From: Candidatus Dormiibacterota bacterium
GTDB taxonomy: Bacteria > Chloroflexota > Dormibacteria > Dormibacterales > Dormibacteraceae
DNA length: 64,000 nucleotides
Direction: 5' to 3'
Assembly (NCBI GenBank): GCA_963790575.1
Contig: CAWBPD010000026.1
Coordinates: 264,411-328,410, forward strand
In this document: one piece after another, positions 34,603 through 51,371 of the stretch
Layout of the letters: each line of letters opens with the position of its first letter
How positions within the stretch are numbered: the first letter of the stretch is position 1
Program-made: the position numbers and the translations under genes
Notes under the pieces: model-generated
Told to the model about the DNA's origin: nothing
Databases searched by the model: none
The model's input: the letters and a program-made list of their open reading frames with translations, nothing else

Positions 34603-35463
34603 CTACTCGATCAACGCTTCGGCCAGCGCCCTCCACTGGGTGACCGGAAATGCCTGCGGCGAGTCGGTGAGCACCTGGATGGTGACGTGCGAGGCGCCCG
34701 CCTCCAGGTGCGCTCGCACCCGCCGCGCGACCGCCGTCAGGTCGCCCCAGCCCACCAGGGCGTCGATCAGCCGGTCGCTACCCCGGTTCTCGAAGTCCCG
34801 GTCCTCGAAGCCAAGCCACCTGAAGCTGTTCAGATAGTTGGTCAGCTGGAAGTAGCGCTCGAGGTTGGCGCGAGCGGTCGCCCGCGCCCGGCCGGCATCA
34901 GTCTCCAGCACCACCCCCTGCTCCGGTGCCAGCAGCGCCTGGGGACCAAGGATCTCACGAGCCCGCGCCGTGTGCTCGGGCGTGGTCAGGTACGGGTGAG
35001 CACCCAGCGAGCGGTCGCGTGACAGGCGCAGCATCCCGGGCCGCAGCGCCGCCAGAGCCCGCCGCCCGGGCGGCACCGGGTGCGCGGCCCCATCGAGACC
35101 GTCGAGGTAACGGCGCATGGTCTCGAGCGGCGGCCCGTACTGCCCGGGCGCCAGGGCCTGCGGGTGCCCGACGCCGAGGCCGAGCAGGAAGCGCTCGGGA
35201 CCGGCAGCGTCGATCTCGTGGAAGACCTGCGCCGTGCGCTCGGGGTCGGTCTCGCGGTAGACGTTGAGGATCCCGGTCGCGACCCGCAGCGTGGTCGTGC
35301 CCGCGACCAGGGCGCGCACCCGCTCCAGCTGGCCCACCTCGCCGCTCGGCAGCCAGGCGGTGGTGAACCCGAGCGCCTCGACCTGCCTCGCCGCGTCGAC
35401 CGCCTCTTGCTCCGGCGAGTTGCGGAGGAGGCTGCTCCAGATCCCGAAGGTGCCGATATCCAT
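34603..35463 (-). CDS. LLM-class (luciferase-like) F420/flavin-dependent oxidoreductase.
   Basis: MDIGTFGIWSS...AARQVEALGFTTAWLPS... is typical of the LLM TIM-barrel family. The internal Met start is at 35463. Confidence 0.75.
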   Translation of the reverse strand: MDIGTFGIWSSLLRNSPEQEAVDAARQVEALGFTTAWLPSGEVGQLERVRALVAGTTTLRVATGILNVYRETDPERTAQVFHEIDAAGPERFLLGLGVGHPQALAPGQYGPPLETMRRYLDGLDGAAHPVPPGRRALAALRPGMLRLSRDRSLGAHPYLTTPEHTARAREILGPQALLAPEQGVVLETDAGRARATARANLERYFQLTNYLNSFRWLGFEDRDFENRGSDRLIDALVGWGDLTAVARRVRAHLEAGASHVTIQVLTDSPQAFPVTQWRALAEALIE

Positions 35464-35606
35464 GCCGGCTGGAACCCACCCCGCGCACACGGACATTCCG
35501 GCCCGTTTCCCGGCGGCGGGACCCAATTTCGCGCGCGAAGTGGGACGTTTCCTGGCAATGAGCGTCGCGCCCACGCGAAACTAGTCCCAAAGGAGGCTGC
35601 GAACGG

Positions 35607-37199
35607 ATGGCAACCGGGCGGGCGGTGCCGCTACCCAGCGCCGATCAGGAGCTGTCGCGTCGGCGGATCAACCTCATCTTCGGCGCGCTGATGCTGGCGA
35701 TGCTAATGGCGGTCCTCGACCAGTCGATCGTGAGCCCGGCCCTCCCCACCATCGTGGGCGACCTGCACGGCTTGGAAGAGATGCAGTGGGTCATCACCGG
35801 CTACCTGCTGACCTCGACCATCGCGCTGCCGATCTACGGCAAGCTCGGGGATCTGATCGGCCGCAAGGGCCTGTTCCTGTTCGCGATCTCGGTCTTCGTC
35901 CTCGGGTCGGTCCTCAGCGGGGCGAGTCAGAACATGGCCGAGCTGATCGCGTTTCGCTCCCTGCAGGGGGTCGGCGGCGGCGGCCTCATGATCTCGGCTC
36001 AGGCGGTCCTGGGCGACATCGTCAGCCCGCGCGAGCGCGGCCGCTACATGGGACCCATGATGGGCGTGCTGGGGGTCGGCACCTTCCTCGGCCCGCTGGT
36101 GGGTGGCTTCTTCACCGACACGGCGAGCTGGCGCTGGTGCTTCTACGTCAACGTGCCGATCGGCATCGCGGCGCTGGCCGTCGTCTTCGTAGTGCTCCAG
36201 GCGCGCACCCGGCAGGGCGACCGACCGCGCCTCGATGTCCTCGGTGCCCTCCTCATCGCCTGCATCTCCACCCTGCTCGTGTTCCTCACCAGCTGGGCGG
36301 GCACCAAGTACCACTGGGCCTCGTGGCAGATCGGGCTGCTCGCGCTTGGATTCCTGGTCGCGGCCGGCCTCTTCATCTGGGCCGAGCGAGAGGCGGCGGA
36401 ACCGCTGATGCCGCTCCGACTGTTCGCCATCCCCACCTTCAGCATCTCGGTCGTGATCGGGCTCTTCGCCGGCTTCGCGATGTTCGGCGCCCTCGCCTAC
36501 CTGCCCACCTTCATGCAGATGGTGAAAGGGGTCTCCGCCACCGCCTCCGGATTGCTCCTGCTGCCTTTGGTGGTCGGGATGATGATCACGTCGGTCACCG
36601 CCGGGGCGCTGACCGCCTCCCTCGGCCGCTACAAGATCTTCGCCATCGTGGGGACCGCCGTGGCGGCCTTCGGGATGGTGCTGATGTCGCGGATGAACGA
36701 GCACACCGGGTTCCTCGAGAACAGCCTCTTCATGTTGATCTTTGGAGCCGGCCTCGGACTCTTGATGAACGTGCTCACGCTGGCGGTGCAGAACGCGGCC
36801 CCGGTCCGCGACCTGGGCACCGCGACCTCCTCGGCCAACTACTTCCGGCAGATCGGGTCGTCGGTCGGCGGCGCGGTCGTCGGCTCGCTCTTCGCCAACC
36901 GTCTCACGGCCAACATCGCAGCCAACATTCCGCCTGCGCTGGCTGCGCACGTGCCCGCCACCAGCGGCCTCACCCCGGCCCTGGTGCGCAGCCTGCCCGG
37001 GGCGCTGCAGACGGTATTCATCCACGCCTACGCAAGTGCGCTCACCCCCCTCTTCCTCTACCTCGCGCCTGTCCTCGGAGTCGGCTTCCTGCTCGCTCTC
37101 GCACTGCCCGAGCTCCCGCTGCGGACCGCCAGGGAGACCCGCGCTCAGGTGGCGCAGCAAGGGGCCGAGCCGCCGCCGGCGGAGGTGGCCGCCCCCTAG
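35607..37199 (+). CDS. MFS transporter of the DHA2 (14-TMS drug:H+ antiporter, EmrB/QacA) family.
   Basis: FGALMLAMLMAVLDQSIVSPALPTIVGDLHG...LPIYGKLGDLIGRKGLFLFAI... are DHA2 signature motifs. The protein is 530 aa. Confidence 0.85.
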   Translation: MATGRAVPLPSADQELSRRRINLIFGALMLAMLMAVLDQSIVSPALPTIVGDLHGLEEMQWVITGYLLTSTIALPIYGKLGDLIGRKGLFLFAISVFVLGSVLSGASQNMAELIAFRSLQGVGGGGLMISAQAVLGDIVSPRERGRYMGPMMGVLGVGTFLGPLVGGFFTDTASWRWCFYVNVPIGIAALAVVFVVLQARTRQGDRPRLDVLGALLIACISTLLVFLTSWAGTKYHWASWQIGLLALGFLVAAGLFIWAEREAAEPLMPLRLFAIPTFSISVVIGLFAGFAMFGALAYLPTFMQMVKGVSATASGLLLLPLVVGMMITSVTAGALTASLGRYKIFAIVGTAVAAFGMVLMSRMNEHTGFLENSLFMLIFGAGLGLLMNVLTLAVQNAAPVRDLGTATSSANYFRQIGSSVGGAVVGSLFANRLTANIAANIPPALAAHVPATSGLTPALVRSLPGALQTVFIHAYASALTPLFLYLAPVLGVGFLLALALPELPLRTARETRAQVAQQGAEPPPAEVAAP

Positions 37200-37345
37200 A
37201 TGAGTTATTCCGAATTGCCGACGTCGGCAACTGGAGTTCGGCGGTGGAAGGCCTGGGCTTCAACCATCGCGAGCACGGGGTCAACTCCCACCTGAGACCA
37301 CTGATGGTTTGGATAAACTCATCTAGCAGGAGCCGCCCGATCGAC

Positions 37346-38140
37346 TCAGGCGGCTTCCGTGGCCGCCGGCCGGCACACCGAACAAGGCCGGTAGCCGACC
37401 GCACGGGCCTCGTGCTCCGAGCGGAAACGCACCTCGTGGGAGGGTCGGATCCGGCGGGCGGCGGCGCAGGAGGGTGTGCAGAAGACGTGGGTGGTGTCAT
37501 TCCCCAGGTAGCGCACACCGGCGGCGGCCAGGCGCTCCAGGCGATCGACGTCGAGACCCTCGGACGCCAGGGCCTGGCGCTTCTGCTCGGGGCCGCCACA
37601 GCTGTAGCTGCCGAGGTGGAGGTCGGACGGGACCACCCGATGACACGGTATCGCCAGTGGCACCGGGTTGCGGGCGAGCGCCGTTCCCACCGCCCGCACC
37701 GCGGCCGGGTGCCCGATCTCGCGCGCCACCCAACCGTAGGTCCGGACCTGGCCCCGGGGGATGGTCTCCGCGGCGCGCAGCACCGACTGCTGGAAGGGCG
37801 TGCGCCCGCCCAGATCGAGGGGGACCACCACCCGCCGGCCCGCCAGACAAGCCTCCCAGACTTGCCGGATCGCGTCCGGCAGGGCCCGCTCGGGCCGGAT
37901 GGTGGCGCCATGCTCGGCACGGAACCAGGCCTCGAACACCTGGTGCCCGTCCGCCGCCCGCCGGACCCCGGCGATCCCGCGCGGGCCGTGACCGACCAGC
38001 ACCGGCCCGAGCGGGCTCTCGGCCGGGGCGTACCAGTAGCCCGAGCCGGCCCGCTGGAGCACCGCCTCCAGGACGCCACGTGGCGCCGGCGTGCGCCCCA
38101 GGGCGGCCAGCCGCTCCAAGGCGCGGTCAGGTTCGGCCAT
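37346..38140 (-). CDS. ogt: O6-alkylguanine-DNA alkyltransferase (Ogt/MGMT) fused to a C-terminal Ada-type Zn-Cys4 methylphosphotriester acceptor domain.
   Basis: An MGMT N-domain and C-domain are present with the active site PCHRVV and ...GSYSCGGPEQKRQALASEG. A C-terminal 60 aa then reads THVFCTPSCAAARRIRPSHEVRFRSEHEARAVGYRPCSVCRP, which matches the Ada_Zn_binding pattern (FCRPSC...RPCxxCxP). The start lies 4 nt after the ECF sigma stop. Confidence 0.8.
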   Translation of the reverse strand: MAEPDRALERLAALGRTPAPRGVLEAVLQRAGSGYWYAPAESPLGPVLVGHGPRGIAGVRRAADGHQVFEAWFRAEHGATIRPERALPDAIRQVWEACLAGRRVVVPLDLGGRTPFQQSVLRAAETIPRGQVRTYGWVAREIGHPAAVRAVGTALARNPVPLAIPCHRVVPSDLHLGSYSCGGPEQKRQALASEGLDVDRLERLAAAGVRYLGNDTTHVFCTPSCAAARRIRPSHEVRFRSEHEARAVGYRPCSVCRPAATEAA

Positions 38141-38143
38141 GGA

Positions 38144-38761
38144 TCAGATCTCCTCCTCTTGCAGCACCCGGCGCAGACGTGCCAGGCCGCGGTGGACGTG
38201 TGACTTGACGGTGCCCTCGGGCAGGCGCAGGATCGCCGCCACCTCTTCGACCGGCCGGTCCTCGGCGTGCCGGAGCAGGATCGCCGCCCGCGCCGGCCCG
38301 GCGATGCCCGCCAGCGCACGCAGCAGCTGCTCCTGCTCCTCGCGTCGAAGGGTGACCACTTCGGGGTTCCGGTCGGGGGTGGGATCGGCGCTCGGGGGCG
38401 GATCCGCGGCCACGACCTGCTCGCGATGCCGGCCCCGCACCGCGTTGCGCAGCGTGTTGAGCGCGATCCGGCGCAGCCACGGCCCTAAGCGCAGCTCCGC
38501 CACCCGCGCCGCGGGATACCGTCGAAGGGCCCGGTACGCCTTCCACAACGTGTCCTGGGCGAGGTCCTCCGCCTGGCCCCCATCCCCCGTCATACCGAGC
38601 AGGAAGGCGTAGAGCCGGTCCTGATGGGTTACGACCAACTCCTCGAAGCTGCTGTCGAGGTCCGCCGCCAGGCGGGTCGCGAGGGCGACTTCGGCGGCCG
38701 GGCGGGCGGGCGCGGGGGCTCGGCGGTCCGGGGGCGCGGGCTCGATCACGGGCACTGCCAC
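38144..38761 (-). CDS. ECF-subfamily RNA polymerase sigma-70 factor.
   Basis: Region 2 is present (ELVVTHQDRLYAFLLGMTGDGGQAEDLAQDTLWKAYRAL). Region 4 is present (RAAILLRHAEDRPVEEVAAILRLPEGTVKSHVHRGLARLRRVL). It is 205 aa. Confidence 0.85.
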   Translation of the reverse strand: MAVPVIEPAPPDRRAPAPARPAAEVALATRLAADLDSSFEELVVTHQDRLYAFLLGMTGDGGQAEDLAQDTLWKAYRALRRYPAARVAELRLGPWLRRIALNTLRNAVRGRHREQVVAADPPPSADPTPDRNPEVVTLRREEQEQLLRALAGIAGPARAAILLRHAEDRPVEEVAAILRLPEGTVKSHVHRGLARLRRVLQEEEI

Positions 38762-38812
38762 ACCCCATCAACACCCCGCGGGTCGGTTCGGGTTGCAGGC
38801 CAGGGGGCTGAG

Positions 38813-38942
38813 GGGCCCGTTGATGCACCAGCGGGTCCTAACACCCTGGTATAGCCCCCCGTTGGTGCACCAGCGGGGCACTCGGGGCGGGGATGGCACC
38901 CGTTGGTGCACCTCCGGGTCTTAACAACCCCTCTTGACACGG
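38813..38942. promoter_or_regulatory. Three direct repeats of about 41 bp, each carrying the palindrome TGGTGCACCA (or a near-palindrome). They lie upstream of the sigma-ogt operon.
   Basis: The units read cccgttgATGCACCAgcgggtcctaacaccc, cccgttgGTGCACCAgcggggcactcgggg, and cccgttgGTGCACCTccgggtcttaacaaccc. The spacing equals four helical turns. A TTGACA hexamer on the plus strand lies at 38931..38936, facing the FTR1 gene. Confidence 0.6.
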
Positions 38943-39069
38943 CCCCTCCGAAATGCCACTTTGGGCCCGCCCCCCTTGGGAGGGTGGGGGCAGGGTGTGT
39001 GAGAGGGGCTGGGCTCTCGGGCGTTAGCCGCAACTAACTCGACGGTTAACGTAAGCTACGCAAGAGCAC

Positions 39070-40107
39070 ATGGCGCTGGACACGTTAGGGGTCAGGACGT
39101 CCCGAGCCGTCTGGGGAAGGGTAGGCCTGGTCGCGGTCGGGCTGTCGGTGTTCCTGGTCTTGGCGGCCTTGACCTGGGCCGCGGTGGCCTTCGCCGGCAA
39201 TCCGGATCCAACCGTCCCGGGCGCGGCGCGCCGGATGTCGGGTGGCGCCGTGGTCATCGGCGCCGGCATCCTCGTCTTCCGCGAAGGCCTGGAGACGATC
39301 CTGGTGCTGGCCGCCGTCACGGCCAGCATGCTGGGCGCCCACGCGGGCCAGCGGCGGCCGGTCGCCACCGGTGGCCTCATCGGCTTCGCCGCCTCGGTCG
39401 CCACCTGGTTCGTGGTGGTCGCCATCCTCAACTCGGTGAACGCGCCCGAGCTGCAGGTCCAGGCGGTGACCGGGCTGGTCGCGGTCGTGGTCCTGCTCGT
39501 GGTCATGAATTGGTTCTTCCACAAGTTCTACTGGACGGGGTGGATCCAGACCCACAACCGCGCCAAGCGCCGCCTCTCACTTCCGGGTTCGCCCCGCCGG
39601 CGCCTGCTCTTCGGTCTCGGCCTGGTCGGCTTCGCCTCCGTCTATCGCGAGGGCGTCGAGGTGGTGCTGTTCTTGCAGACGCTGCGCCTGCAGTCGAGCA
39701 CCTGGACCGTGTTCCTGGGTGTCCTGATCGGCCTCTACCTGACGGCCGCGGTTGGAACGCTCACCTTCGTCATCCATCGCCGGCTGCCTTACAAGCGGAT
39801 GCTCACGCTGACCGGGGTGATGCTCGGCGCGGTGCTGCTGGTCATGGTCGGCGAGGAGATCAACGAGCTGCAGCTGGCCGGTTGGATGCCGGCCACCGCA
39901 CTCCCCTTCGGGATCCAGTTTCCGGCCTGGACGGGCACCTGGCTGTCGCTCTTCGCCAACTGGGAGACGCTGGCGGGGATGGCACTGGCCGCCGCCTTCG
40001 TGATCGGCTCCTACTATCTCGCCAACTACCGCAAGGTGAGGCGGCCGCGACGTCAGGGTGAACGACCCGCCGTCCGGCCGGCGGCAGCCCCCGTGCGCGA
40101 GTCCTGA
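39070..40107 (+). CDS. FTR1-family high-affinity iron permease (EfeU-like).
   Basis: Two REGLE motifs are present (FREGLETILV and YREGVEVVLF) and there are seven transmembrane segments. Confidence 0.85.
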   Translation: MALDTLGVRTSRAVWGRVGLVAVGLSVFLVLAALTWAAVAFAGNPDPTVPGAARRMSGGAVVIGAGILVFREGLETILVLAAVTASMLGAHAGQRRPVATGGLIGFAASVATWFVVVAILNSVNAPELQVQAVTGLVAVVVLLVVMNWFFHKFYWTGWIQTHNRAKRRLSLPGSPRRRLLFGLGLVGFASVYREGVEVVLFLQTLRLQSSTWTVFLGVLIGLYLTAAVGTLTFVIHRRLPYKRMLTLTGVMLGAVLLVMVGEEINELQLAGWMPATALPFGIQFPAWTGTWLSLFANWETLAGMALAAAFVIGSYYLANYRKVRRPRRQGERPAVRPAAAPVRES

Positions 40108-48233: not shown

Positions 48234-49049
48234 TCAGGTGGCGACGCCCAGTTCCCGCAGCTGGTCGTTGAGCGTGAGCTTGCGATCGGTGGCGTCGCTC
48301 CGCCACCCGATGATGAGCCCGCACGCCAGCTGGTACTCGCCCGCCGGGAAGGTGCGCGTACGTGTCCCCGGGACCACGATCGCGCCTGGCGGGACCTCAC
48401 CCCGGTGCTCGACCGGAGAGGGTCCGGTGACGTCGATGACGGGAGTGGAGCCGGTGAGGACGACGTTGGCGCCCAGCACCGCCCATTCCCCCACCACCAC
48501 GCCTTCCGTGACCACCGCGCGCGAACCAATGAAACAGCCGTCCTCGATGACCACCGGCCGCGCCTGCACGGGCTCCAGCACGCCCCCGATGCCCACCCCG
48601 CCTGCCAGGTGGACGCCGCTGCCGACCTGCGCGCAGGACCCGACGGTGGCCCAGGTGTCGACCATGGTGCCGGCGCCCACGCGGGCTCCGACGTTGACGT
48701 AGGACGGCATCAAGATCACGCCGCGTTCCAAGTGTGAGCCGTAGCGCGCCACCGCCGGGGGCACCACCCGCACGCCGGCGCCCTCGTAGTCGTGCTTGAG
48801 CGGGATGCGGTCCCGGTACTCGAAGGGCCCGGTCTCGATGGTCTCGATCTCGTAGAGCTTGAAGTAGAGGAGGATCGCCTTCTTCACCCATTCGTTGGCC
48901 ACCCACCGGCCAGCATGCTTCTGGGCGCTGCGCAGGCTCCCGTCATCGAGGCCGGCGATCGTCCACTCCACCGCCTCCTTGTCCTGCCCGCCCTGGGCAT
49001 AGGCGGCTTCGATACGAGCCTGGAGTTCGTCCGGGTCGGGGTCAGTCAT
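48234..49049 (-). CDS. dapD: 2,3,4,5-tetrahydropyridine-2,6-dicarboxylate N-succinyltransferase.
   Basis: Left-handed beta-helix hexapeptide repeats are present (VGAGTMVDTWATVGSCAQVGSGVHLAGGVGIGGVLEP...), with a DapD-like N-terminal domain. Confidence 0.8.
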   Translation of the reverse strand: MTDPDPDELQARIEAAYAQGGQDKEAVEWTIAGLDDGSLRSAQKHAGRWVANEWVKKAILLYFKLYEIETIETGPFEYRDRIPLKHDYEGAGVRVVPPAVARYGSHLERGVILMPSYVNVGARVGAGTMVDTWATVGSCAQVGSGVHLAGGVGIGGVLEPVQARPVVIEDGCFIGSRAVVTEGVVVGEWAVLGANVVLTGSTPVIDVTGPSPVEHRGEVPPGAIVVPGTRTRTFPAGEYQLACGLIIGWRSDATDRKLTLNDQLRELGVAT

Positions 49050-50343
49050 CTCCGACGAGCCTATCCGGTCGGTCCACCGCGAGCTCCCGGTAGCGGTACA
49101 CCGCCTGCTCGGGCGCGCGGGCCAGCGTCAACGTGCCGCGGTCGGTGTATTCGGTGTCCTCCACCACGCCCTCGCGCCGCAGCTCCTCGATCACCCCCTC
49201 GCGACCGTAGGGGACGAGCAGGCGCACCGGTACCAGCGCGCGCTGATCCGCTTCTGCCAGCGCCGTGTCCAGCTCGTCGAGGCCGGCGCCCGTCTGCGCC
49301 GAGATGGGGACGACCGTGCCGTACCGGACCCGGAACCCGGGCAGTACCCGGCGCAGGCCGGCCACCCCGAGGAGGTCGATCTTGTTGAGCGCGACCACGC
49401 GCGGTACCTCCCCCGCGCCCAGCTCCTGAAGCACCTGGTCGACGGTCGCCGCCTGATCGAGGGCGGAAGCGGCGCTCGCATCGACCACGTGGAGCACGAC
49501 ATCGGCTTCCGTCACCTCCTCCAAGGTGGAGCGGAACGCCGCGACCAGGTCGGTGGGCAGGTTCTGGATGAAGCCGACGGTGTCGCTCAACAGCAGCTCG
49601 CGGCCGCTCGCGGTCCGGTGCCGGCGCGTGGTCGGGTCGAGGGTGGCGAACAGCTGGTGCGCGGCGGGCACGCCGGCACCGGTCATGGTGTTGAGCAGCG
49701 TGGACTTCCCGGCGTTGGTGTAGCCCACGATGGCGACCGTGATCAGGTCGGCCCGGTGGCGGCCCTGGCGCTGCTGTTCGCGGCGGGCCCGCACCTGCTC
49801 CAGCTCGCGCTCCAGGTCCCGGACCTGACGCCGGACGCGGCGGCGCTCGATCTCGGTCTGCTGCTCGCCGGGGCCACCGCGGGTTCCGCGGCCACCCATC
49901 TGTCGGTTGACGTCGTAGGCGCCCACCAGTCGCGGGAGCCAGTGGCGCAGCCGTGCCACCTCGACCTGCAGGCGACCGTCACGGGTGCGCGCGTGCAGCG
50001 CGAAGATCTCGAGAATGATCTCGGTCCGGTCCAGCACCGGCACCGCCAGCTCCCGCTCCAGGTTCCGCTGCTGGCGTGGGGAGAGGTCCTCGTTGCAGAC
50101 CAGCAGATCGAATTCCAACTCGCCGCGCCGGGTGCGGATCTCCTCGACCTTGCCCCGACCGCAGAATAGTGCCGGGTCGATCGCCGCCCGCCGCTGGAGG
50201 TCGGTGCAGACAGGATCCGCACCCGCGGTGCGCACCAGCTCGGCGAGCTCTGTCATCTGCTCCTCAAGCCGGGCCGGCTCGGTGCCGGGCAGCAGGACGC
50301 CCAGCAGGTAGGCGCGGTCGCGCCGCTCGGCGGTGTTCAGCAA
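49042..50343 (-). CDS. hflX: GTPase HflX.
   Basis: An HflX N-domain is present (AYLLGVLLPG...ELVRTAGA). The G domain is VAIVGYTNAGKSTLLN...DTVGFI...NKID. Confidence 0.9.
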   Translation of the reverse strand: MLNTAERRDRAYLLGVLLPGTEPARLEEQMTELAELVRTAGADPVCTDLQRRAAIDPALFCGRGKVEEIRTRRGELEFDLLVCNEDLSPRQQRNLERELAVPVLDRTEIILEIFALHARTRDGRLQVEVARLRHWLPRLVGAYDVNRQMGGRGTRGGPGEQQTEIERRRVRRQVRDLERELEQVRARREQQRQGRHRADLITVAIVGYTNAGKSTLLNTMTGAGVPAAHQLFATLDPTTRRHRTASGRELLLSDTVGFIQNLPTDLVAAFRSTLEEVTEADVVLHVVDASAASALDQAATVDQVLQELGAGEVPRVVALNKIDLLGVAGLRRVLPGFRVRYGTVVPISAQTGAGLDELDTALAEADQRALVPVRLLVPYGREGVIEELRREGVVEDTEYTDRGTLTLARAPEQAVYRYRELAVDRPDRLVGDD

Positions 50344-51371
50344 AGCCTCGGGCCCCCACGAAACGGAGCTTGCGGAGTTTCGCGGGGTGGGCTATCGAGG
50401 AACTGCGGAGCGGTCATGGAAAGGAGCTTGAGAATACGACCGCTGGGATCATCCGTTGCATCCACCCAGCGGATACGCGGATCTCGGCGCAGCCACCGCA
50501 GCTGGCGCCGCGCGTACCGGCCGTTGGCCCGCGCCATCGCGGCCAGGAGCTCCTTCGGGGCCAGCTCGCCCTGCAGGAACGCCAGTGCCTCGGCGTACCC
50601 GATCCCGGACAGGACCGGTGCCGAGGCGGGCACCCCGCGCTCCAGCGCCTGCCGCGTCTCCTCCACCAGGCCGCGTGCCACCTGCCGGGCCGACCTCCGG
50701 CGCAGCCGGCGGTCGAGGTCCGCCAGGGGCACCTCGAGGCCCAACCGCAGGACGTCCCAGTCGGGCGGCGTGCGTTCCCGGTGCCGGGCGAGCGGACCAC
50801 CCAGCTCGTCCAGGATCTCGATCGCCCGCACCAGCCGGCGGGGATTCTGCCAGTCCACCTCCGCCCGGGGGTCCAGCCGGCGGAGCCGGTCCTGCAGCTC
50901 GGGCAGCGGCAAGGTCGCGAGCTCCGCGCGCCGTTCCTCGCCAGGTGCGCCGCCGGGCAACGCGTAGCCGTCGAGCAAGGCGTCGGCCCACAGCCCAGAC
51001 CCCCCCTCGAGGACCGCCACCCGTCCTCGCGCCGTGATCTCCCCCACGGCCGGGGTGGCCAGCCGCTGGAAGTCGTGGACGGTGAAGGTGTCCCGTGGAT
51101 CGGCCACGCCCACCAGGTGATGAGGCACACGCGCCAGCTGGTCGGGGGGCGGCTTGTTGGTCGCGATGTCGAGCTCCCGGTAGACCTGGCGGGAGTCGCA
51201 GACCACGATCTCCGCGTTGAGCCGGGTGGCGATGGCGTACGCGGCGTCGCTCTTGCCGGCGCCGGTCGGCCCCAGGATGGCGAGCACCCGCGGACGCGTC
51301 GCCAGGGGCCGTTTCCCGGGAAGCGGCCCCTCGGACGTCCCTTCCCCGGGAAACGGCGGGTGCGTGGTCAC
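50337..51371 (-). CDS. miaA: tRNA dimethylallyltransferase MiaA. The N-terminal roughly 25 codons may be spurious.
   Basis: The P-loop is ILGPTGAGKSDAAYAIA, followed by VCDSRQVYRELDIATNKP. The upstream Gly/Pro-rich codons coincide with a short direct repeat in the DNA. Confidence 0.85.
   Translation of the reverse strand: MTTHPPFPGEGTSEGPLPGKRPLATRPRVLAILGPTGAGKSDAAYAIATRLNAEIVVCDSRQVYRELDIATNKPPPDQLARVPHHLVGVADPRDTFTVHDFQRLATPAVGEITARGRVAVLEGGSGLWADALLDGYALPGGAPGEERRAELATLPLPELQDRLRRLDPRAEVDWQNPRRLVRAIEILDELGGPLARHRERTPPDWDVLRLGLEVPLADLDRRLRRRSARQVARGLVEETRQALERGVPASAPVLSGIGYAEALAFLQGELAPKELLAAMARANGRYARRQLRWLRRDPRIRWVDATDDPSGRILKLLSMTAPQFLDSPPRETPQAPFRGGPRLC

Follow-up and report, generated by a model that had tools for sequence, protein, structure and literature searches.

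We examined a 64,000-nt stretch of a Candidatus Dormiibacterota genome (contig CAWBPD010000026.1, positions 264,411 to 328,410; hereafter the window), in which the gene for an extracytoplasmic function (ECF) sigma factor is followed by the gene for a putative partner, a fusion of an O6-alkylguanine alkyltransferase (Ogt) with the zinc domain of Ada, here called Ogt-Ada(Zn). Our analyses identify an alkylation-responsive sigma/partner switch as the best-supported reading of this pair, and we prefer its inhibitory version. We lean somewhat towards reading the locus as an ECF122-type module of two genes, self-contained and autoregulated, in which the unmethylated partner holds the sigma factor and methylation frees it. 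A direct relation between the two proteins is favoured because of the stop/start overlap of their genes, because natural variants carry both in a single chain, and because one clade has a decayed Ogt and yet an intact zinc domain and N-terminal helices. These comparative results, drawn from sequence, support a regulatory partnership without deciding between inhibition and activation of the sigma factor; we infer that the two proteins bind each other, that the partner inhibits and that methylation is what it senses. An earlier, sequence-only reading of this DNA had proposed a damage-gated anti-sigma factor, an idea that appears plausible and that the comparative evidence backs.

Gene content and domains of the window pair

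Open reading frames (ORFs), Pfam matches and sequence motifs all confirmed the gene content that the sequence-only reading had given for this locus, namely an ECF sigma gene followed by an Ogt gene with a PCHRVV active site and a C-terminal Cys4 motif (Table 1). The sigma factor is about 200 aa long and was found to contain only the sigma2 and sigma4 regions, as expected of ECF (group IV) proteins (Pfam Sigma70_r2 at aa 42-113, E=4.9e-13; Sigma70_r4_2 at aa 144-196, E=5.4e-12), and it scored 79.2 bits against the sigma70-ECF model TIGR02937 (cutoff 42.9). As its relatives are annotated at 190-193 aa, the GTG at 38749 is an alternative start for the window gene.

Evaluating the 264-aa partner further, we found two of the three Pfam families that had been named for it, both above their thresholds: DNA_binding_1 at aa 115-195 (E=1.7e-29, 101.9 bits), with the sequence IPCHRVV, and Ada_Zn_binding (PF02805) at aa 206-258 (E=4.2e-10, 39.9 bits, gathering score 23). 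The third, Methyltransf_1N, gave no sequence match in Pfam, and this N-domain is covered by the predicted fold. An AlphaFold2 (AF2) model built with 89 homologs (predicted local distance difference test, pLDDT, 93; predicted template modelling score, pTM, 0.85) places two additional helices at the N-terminus, followed by the full two-domain alkyltransferase fold and, at the C-terminus, one small domain. Foldseek searches with this model matched C-Ada (1sfe) and the Mycobacterium tuberculosis OGT (4bhb) at template modelling scores (TMt) of 0.77-0.79 over ~165 residues, and the tail matched the methylated N-Ada/DNA complex 1u8b (E=9e-3, 68 columns, 32% identity). The residues expected of an Ogt or alkylguanine transferase (AGT) are present along with the two-domain fold (PCHR active site, Tyr, Arg-finger, Asn, Tyr, Lys and Glu), and with every Ogt catalytic residue kept, the window partner is a candidate for a working repair enzyme.

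The C-terminal motifs FCTPSC...RPCSVCRP form a CX3C...CX2C zinc site. It had been considered beforehand that this Cys4 pattern might fall below the Ada_Zn_binding threshold; it survived that test with a score well over the gathering value and with the structural match to 1u8b. A sub-threshold match to the NCBIfam 'sunset domain' NF051437 (18 bits, cutoff 27) also overlaps the zinc domain at 37367-37525, and may reflect a related small Cys-rich fold. No HTH_18 or other AraC-type helix-turn-helix (HTH) match was returned for the partner from Pfam at E up to 1 or from NCBIfam, which agrees with the earlier statement that the fusion protein has no AraC HTH, and the best NCBIfam match, PRK15435 Ada, reached 100.8 bits, far under its cutoff of 345 bits. 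By its domain content, the partner is outside the Ada/AdaA transcriptional regulators, as it lacks their defining AraC HTH.

Ahead of the alkyltransferase, the partner carries an N-terminal extension whose two helices (aa 6-16 and 23-31) were delimited from alignments and AF2 secondary structure, with L11, L14, A19, P20, L28 and G32 conserved across the alignments. This extension is absent from the canonical stand-alone Ogt that we compared, and we regard it as a candidate sigma-binding element.

At the junction of the two genes, the adjacency described earlier stood and the distance of 4 nt did not: TCC separates the sigma stop TGA (38146-38144) from the partner ATG (38140), leaving a gap of 3 nt with the ORFs in frame. 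In the window (38138-38146), TGA-TCC alone parts these same-frame ORFs, and the closest relative, L081, is arranged likewise with TGA-ACC. A conserved read-through is not implied by this arrangement, because most other lineages use an out-of-frame ATGA overlap.

The pairing recurs across at least five phyla

Homologs of the fusion protein numbered at least 2376 at E<=1e-5, and both Pfam domains were present in each of the best 120. When one genome per species was scanned, at least 598 relatives emerged, of which the best 80 loci were used for neighbourhood analysis; these spanned Dormibacterota, Chloroflexota, Acidobacteriota, Actinomycetota, Entotheonella and others, at least five phyla in all. 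Linkage to an ECF sigma gene had been set in advance as the test on which the proposal could fail, and it survived, with a sigma homolog directly upstream on the same strand in all 78 loci that had enough upstream DNA (78/78; phmmer E 1e-20 to 1e-86). A 4-nt stop/start overlap (ATGA or GTGA) with an in-frame start codon was seen in 60/79 loci and is the classic signature of translational coupling.

Clustering of related loci revealed no third conserved gene across the neighbourhoods, so that no alternative anti-sigma gene was evident. It had also been asked whether the true anti-sigma might be encoded elsewhere, or the pairing be unique to one strain, and the proposal withstood both questions, as no other neighbour is conserved and the pairing recurs across phyla. 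In a subset of Chloroflexia only, an apparent EamA/DMT-type transporter gene, judged by eye from sequence motifs, lies downstream. Cultured carriers of the module include Rubrobacter radiotolerans RSPS-4 (on plasmid 2), Nonomuraea gerenzanensis and several Streptomyces strains. In L081 (8290-10028), a second ECF sigma gene followed by a gene for a DUF4232 protein lies a few kb downstream of the module.

A shared promoter motif precedes the sigma gene

Intergenic alignment of the window with three Dormibacterota relatives revealed a conserved block ~20 nt ahead of the sigma start. Across the wider family, the motif TGCAAC(C)-N16-G(T/G)GTT(C) was found upstream of the sigma gene in 65/77 loci, with the start codon usually ~9-12 nt past the -10 element, and the same motif stands ahead of the sigma gene in the Streptomyces and Nonomuraea loci. 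ECF promoters are expected to pair a -35 element that contains AAC with a G/T-rich -10 element about 16-17 nt away, and the motif looks like a typical group-specific, autoregulated ECF promoter that the window sigma factor presumably uses itself. The window copy (Table 1) is the best match to the derived family matrix in all 64 kb, and because its score of 21.8 is near the top of the range for shuffled sequences (maximum 21.1), the promoter call rests also on position and on conservation in relatives. In the window, 8 nt separate the -10 element from the GTG start of the sigma gene, so that the mRNA may be leaderless or have a very short leader.

The second-best match to the matrix (GGATGCAACGG...CGTATTC; 50429-50461, reverse strand) falls within a miaA-like gene, at its 3' end, and upstream of hflX (49042-50343, reverse strand). 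We rejected it as a second promoter, since its score of 18.6 is within the shuffled range (maximum 21.1) and it is probably a chance match. An Rfam scan gave only a chance mir-550 match, and scans of 37150-39120 for sigma70 promoters and terminators found nothing.

In some Chloroflexia (L040 2353-3391, and probably also L070), a luciferase-like monooxygenase gene is placed between the family promoter and the sigma gene, with the promoter ~950 nt further upstream. The window also has a luciferase-like ORF (34603-35574, reverse strand), which is outside the sigma operon.

Natural fusions and a clade with a degenerate Ogt

In Streptomyces sp. NBC_00212, sigma factor and partner form one continuous 448-codon ORF that contains Sigma70_r4_2, DNA_binding_1 and Ada_Zn_binding. 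The fused protein also occurs in Streptomyces sp. WM6378, in NPDC050516, in S. violascens (88% identity) and in ENA and Logan assemblies, so that at least four Streptomyces strains carry it besides S. violascens; because the same protein was found in several strains and assemblies, a sequencing artefact can be dismissed. The sigma factors linked to the module are matched by its sigma half at E ~5e-21.

Two subtypes of partner could be told apart by their Ogt residues. Among the main-type homologs, the window protein included, the equivalents of human AGT (hAGT) Y114, R128, N137, C145, H146, R147, Y158, K165 and E172 are invariant (118/118). The Streptomyces-type clade keeps the equivalents of Tyr114, Arg128, Tyr158 and Lys165 in 0/47 proteins each, and the active-site Cys is missing in 5/47. 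The four zinc Cys residues are invariant or near-invariant in both subtypes, and the Streptomyces-type proteins keep them in 47/47, along with the N-terminal P20 (44/47), L28 (46/47) and G32 (47/47). With the Ogt residues decayed and the zinc Cys residues and N-terminal helices kept, it follows that the sigma-linked function can do without Ogt repair chemistry; to judge from these alignments, the features of the partner that selection has retained without exception beside the sigma gene are the Ada zinc centre and the N-terminal helices, and Ogt chemistry is not among them. In the three Streptomyces-type loci that we examined, all on plasmids (Table 1), a separate canonical Ogt gene (DNA_binding_1 at 92.9 bits, plus Methyltransf_1N) lies directly downstream, which suggests a division of sensor and effector between two proteins there.

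We also modelled the natural fusion with AF2. Joint MAFFT alignments of sigma and partner homologs were usable for small balanced sets only; the alignment behind the model was therefore shallow over the C-terminal half, and the model (pTM 0.55) is confident for the sigma half only, although the conserved helix motif reached a pLDDT of 84 amid poorly predicted segments. The modelled sigma2/sigma4 pair superimposes on the anti-sigma-bound states of SigW-RsiW, RpoE-NepR and CnrH-CnrY (TMt 0.75-0.77) and not on the holoenzyme sigma states (TMt 0.30-0.40). This compact state of the modelled sigma half is weak support for inhibition.

Proposed mechanism and its alternatives

In the mechanism that we prefer, the sigma factor would recognise the promoter of its own gene (in the window, TGCAAC-N17-GTGTT) and so direct transcription of itself together with its translationally coupled partner. 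The partner would be a double suicide methyl acceptor without any HTH for reading DNA sequence: its Ogt domain would take alkyl groups from O6-alkylguanine onto Cys166, and its zinc domain would take methyl groups from DNA methylphosphotriesters onto Cys221. While unmethylated, the partner would bind and hold the sigma factor by means of the two conserved helices of its N-terminal extension, perhaps assisted by the zinc domain. AGTs are known to lose stability once alkylated, and in Ada the methylation of Cys38 acts as a transcriptional switch. In the window partner, irreversible methylation of Cys221 (as in Ada Cys38), and perhaps of Cys166, would change or destabilise the partner and set the sigma factor free. 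The free sigma factor would then make more of itself and fresh acceptor, until unmethylated partner accumulated and shut off the loop by negative feedback. Such a circuit would amount to an Ada-like adaptive response with a dedicated sigma factor in place of the AraC HTH of Ada.

The same observations could also describe a partner that works as a positive cofactor. Here methylation of the zinc-bound Cys would remove negative charge, an electrostatic switch as in E. coli Ada, and the methylated partner, bound or fused to a sigma factor that is inactive alone, would help the holoenzyme to engage the promoter. The most conserved part of the partner is indeed the zinc domain with its four Cys residues and the adjacent basic R229 and R230, the structure that this domain matches is a methylated N-Ada/DNA complex, and the natural single-chain proteins resemble ECF sigma factors with activating C-terminal extensions. 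Ada itself activates transcription by contacting region 4 of sigma70. Yet positions beyond the -35 element, on its upstream side, carry no information in the promoter matrix (though contacts to the DNA backbone only would leave none), the loop would be strictly positive with no obvious off-switch, and the compact sigma state in the fusion model, for what a model of this kind can say, fits inhibition slightly better. We consider a positive cofactor rather improbable.

A second alternative is that the two genes share an operon and nothing else: the sigma factor would be controlled by another promoter, by proteolysis or by an unlinked anti-sigma, and the fusion would be an expressed repair enzyme that never touches it. 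The full set of Ogt catalytic residues in the window protein would suit this explanation, as would the absence of any anti-sigma motif detected by Pfam in the partner or in the N-terminal segments, and the ECF122 entry in the literature (see below) offers no mechanism to set against it. It sits poorly with a linkage of 78/78 across phyla with 4-nt overlaps, with natural fusions that have been maintained and extra N-terminal helices that are conserved, and with a clade that still keeps the protein beside the sigma gene after its Ogt residues have decayed and a real Ogt is encoded separately downstream. An autoregulated ECF sigma factor without a negative regulator would, moreover, lock on. Contactless co-expression seems to us a doubtful account of the pair.

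Several points weigh against the inhibitory switch that we prefer. No anti-sigma domain family (zf-HC2, HxxxCxxC) was matched by the whole partner in Pfam, and the N-terminal 40-52 aa of four homologs matched no Pfam family and no known anti-sigma family. The fusion model has a pTM of only 0.55, a weak point for any structural argument, and AF2 tends to draw ECF sigma factors in the compact state regardless. A single chain of sigma factor and partner fits an activating partner equally well, and tight operon linkage would also be expected if the partner were simply the main product of the regulon. Literature searches found no experimental study of the sigma-partner pair, and the ECF122 entry of the ECF literature grades the group only as 'unknown mechanism'.

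A bolder form of the proposal is that Ogt-Ada(Zn) is a new kind of anti-sigma factor, a suicide repair enzyme that, once irreversibly methylated by transfer from damaged DNA, lets go of a dedicated ECF sigma factor in at least five phyla, with the Ogt half turned into a pure sensor in actinomycetes; we hold this to be possible, at somewhat less than an even chance. If true, the cell would gauge its remaining pool of unspent repair protein directly, and an Ada-type adaptive response would have been built on a sigma/anti-sigma pair and spread over at least five phyla. Should the partner indeed gate the sigma factor by taking up methyl groups from DNA, an irreversible DNA-repair reaction would be seen to drive a sigma switch for the first time, and the induction of alkylation repair in many phyla without an Ada/AraC regulator would have an explanation. 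The analysis provides testable material for these ideas in the promoter (TGCAAC-N16-GTGTT), in the residues C221 and C166 and in the N-terminal helices with P20, L28 and G32, and identifies two naturally occurring variants, one fused and one sensor-only, with cultured carriers that include R. radiotolerans RSPS-4, N. gerenzanensis and several Streptomyces NBC strains, NBC_00503 among them.

Relation to known systems

The sequence-only reading had taken the pairing of a sigma factor with Ogt/Ada to be undescribed, which proved wrong, as the sigma-Ogt association is already catalogued as ECF122. The ECF122 entry in a 2022 review (PMC8999054), citing the 2021 ECF re-classification of Casas-Pastor et al., gives no anti-sigma, 6-O-methylguanine DNA methyltransferases as conserved neighbours and an 'unknown mechanism', and its representative is actinobacterial (Cellulomonas sp. 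Root930, WP_057211282.1). In line with that entry, our loci show the methyltransferase linked in 78/78 and no recognisable anti-sigma. The window module probably belongs to ECF122, to judge from its context and from the promoter and gene order that it has in common with actinobacterial modules (those of Streptomyces, Nonomuraea and Rubrobacter). It differs in its Dormibacterota-like host, and the linkage shown here extends also to Chloroflexota, Acidobacteriota and other phyla. The window module is, in these terms, a Dormibacterota-like case of a known but uncharacterised ECF122-type pairing.

Comparison with E. coli Ada, and with AdaA/AdaB of Bacillus subtilis, shows the same ingredients, a Cys4 zinc acceptor for methylphosphotriesters and an O6-alkylguanine alkyltransferase at an autoregulated locus. 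In contrast to E. coli Ada, the domain order of the window partner is reversed (Ogt, then zinc), an AraC-type HTH is lacking and an N-terminal two-helix extension is added, and promoter recognition would fall to a separate dedicated ECF sigma factor and not to sigma70 with Ada. SigR-RsrA, of the zinc-containing anti-sigma (ZAS) type, likewise has a co-transcribed, translationally coupled partner with a zinc-thiolate centre whose covalent modification could release the sigma factor; the window partner differs in having no HxxxCxxC domain, and its proposed signal is irreversible methyl transfer from DNA and not reversible oxidation. The minimal anti-sigma factors CnrY and NepR are similar in size to the two-helix element of the partner, and the sigma half of the fusion model superimposes on their complexes, CnrH-CnrY and RpoE-NepR. 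The Streptomyces variant, with sigma factor and Ogt-like/zinc module in one polypeptide, resembles ECF sigma factors that have regulatory domains fused at the C-terminus, such as ECF41, ECF42 and ECF44 (CorE types), from which the window and most lineages differ in having two separate proteins, and the fused domain in being a methyl acceptor derived from DNA repair.

Table 1. Features of the sigma/Ogt-Ada(Zn) locus. Coordinates are those of the window unless a locus is named; strand is left empty where none applies.
Feature	Coordinates	Strand	Description
ECF (group IV) sigma ORF	38144..38761	-	205 aa from GTG 38761
Ogt-Ada(Zn) fusion partner	37346..38140	-	264 aa; N-terminal two-helix extension, two-domain O6-alkylguanine alkyltransferase, Ada-type Cys4 zinc domain
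N-terminal extension	38042..38140	-	partner aa 1-33; helices aa 6-16 and 23-31
Ogt C-terminal domain (DNA_binding_1)	37556..37798	-	PCHRV active site, Cys166
Ada-type zinc domain	37367..37525	-	Cys221, Cys225, Cys253 and Cys256, aligned with E. coli Ada Cys38, 42, 69 and 72
Predicted autoregulatory ECF promoter	38766..38798	-	TGCAAC 38797-38792, 17-nt spacer, GTGTT 38774-38770
Three tandem copies of a ~31-nt unit	38816-38846, 38858-38888, 38899-38929		upstream of the promoter; 68-84% identical
Conserved 40-nt element (CGTTAGCCGCAACTAACTCGACGGTTAACGTAAGCTACGC)	39022..39061		directly ahead of the FTR1 gene (iron permease; divergent; 39070-40107, +)
Streptomyces plasmid loci	L085 4287-4859, L087 4294-4884, L088 4307-4864		sigma gene, Ogt-degenerate 'Ada metal-binding domain protein' and separate Ogt

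Palindromic repeats upstream of the promoter

Upstream of the promoter, the sequence-only reading had described three identical palindromes at a uniform 41-bp spacing. Three palindromes are indeed present, each within one copy of a tandem repeat unit (Table 1), while their identity and even spacing did not hold: only the middle one (38863-38872) is an exact TGGTGCACCA, the others have one mismatch (TGATGCACCA at 38821 and TGGTGCACCT at 38904), and the spacings are 42 and 41 bp. Each unit holds an imperfect palindrome of 20-22 bp (CCCCGTTGGTGCACCAGCGGGG), and the sites can also be given as CCGNTGGTGCACCANCGG-like. A search with an 18-nt palindrome pattern, allowing up to 3 mismatches, found no further copy elsewhere in the 64-kb window. 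Three or more whole-window matches arose in 13/100 shuffles, so that the count alone, which is all that the shuffle test addresses, is not unusual; we regard the repeat as genuine because all three copies lie within ~115 bp and share a common 31-nt unit.

Among relatives that all keep the promoter and the genes, the 85%-identical L081 has one copy of the repeat, and L082 and L001 have none; the distance from repeat to -35 element is 24 nt in the window and 38 nt in L081. The repeat units score below 9 on the family promoter matrix, against 21.8 for the real promoter, and for that reason we rejected them as duplicated promoters. A metagenome scan for the palindrome gave mostly single, coding or chance matches, with the exception of GGGCCGTTGGTGCACCAACGGCCC pairs 42 bp apart on two unrelated GC-rich metagenomic contigs (L089 273-330 and L202 105-165). 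Each pair follows a stop codon and occupies a short spacer flanked by genes of the same direction, with no sigma module nearby.

The earlier suggestion of a cooperative operator or a triple promoter found no support in these results, given the lack of conservation in relatives, the low matrix scores and the same palindrome at two unrelated loci. Operator sites for a dimeric factor, bound cooperatively on one helical face and regulating the sigma operon or the divergent FTR1 gene, would account for the 20-22 bp dyad symmetry, the 41-42 bp phasing and the location within a divergent promoter region, and the 42-bp pairing at two other loci could then reflect a regulon. Such sites would not be expected to shrink to one copy, or to none, at the corresponding place in relatives with module and promoter intact, nor to vary in distance to the -35 element; they have no match to the family promoter matrix, and the metagenomic copies have the placement typical of repetitive extragenic palindromic (REP)-like elements. 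We think an operator function unlikely. The palindromes are probably, on thin evidence, a REP-like extragenic repeat outside the conserved module, and the pairs in L089 and L202 may point to an undescribed REP-like repeat family. As in REP elements and bacterial interspersed mosaic elements (BIMEs), these are imperfect, GC-rich palindromes of 20-22 bp, arranged in tandem with a ~42 bp period in extragenic spacers at unrelated loci; unlike them, the window repeats belong to a divergent promoter region instead of a 3' end, and have no other copies in 64 kb.

A conserved element ahead of the FTR1 gene

On the far side of the repeats, just ahead of the divergent FTR1 gene, alignment of four Dormibacterota genomes revealed that the 40-nt element of Table 1 is near-invariant and contains a GTTAG-N6-CTAAC dyad. 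This element is outside the sigma module and is probably an operator for the FTR1 gene, perhaps that of a metal regulator.

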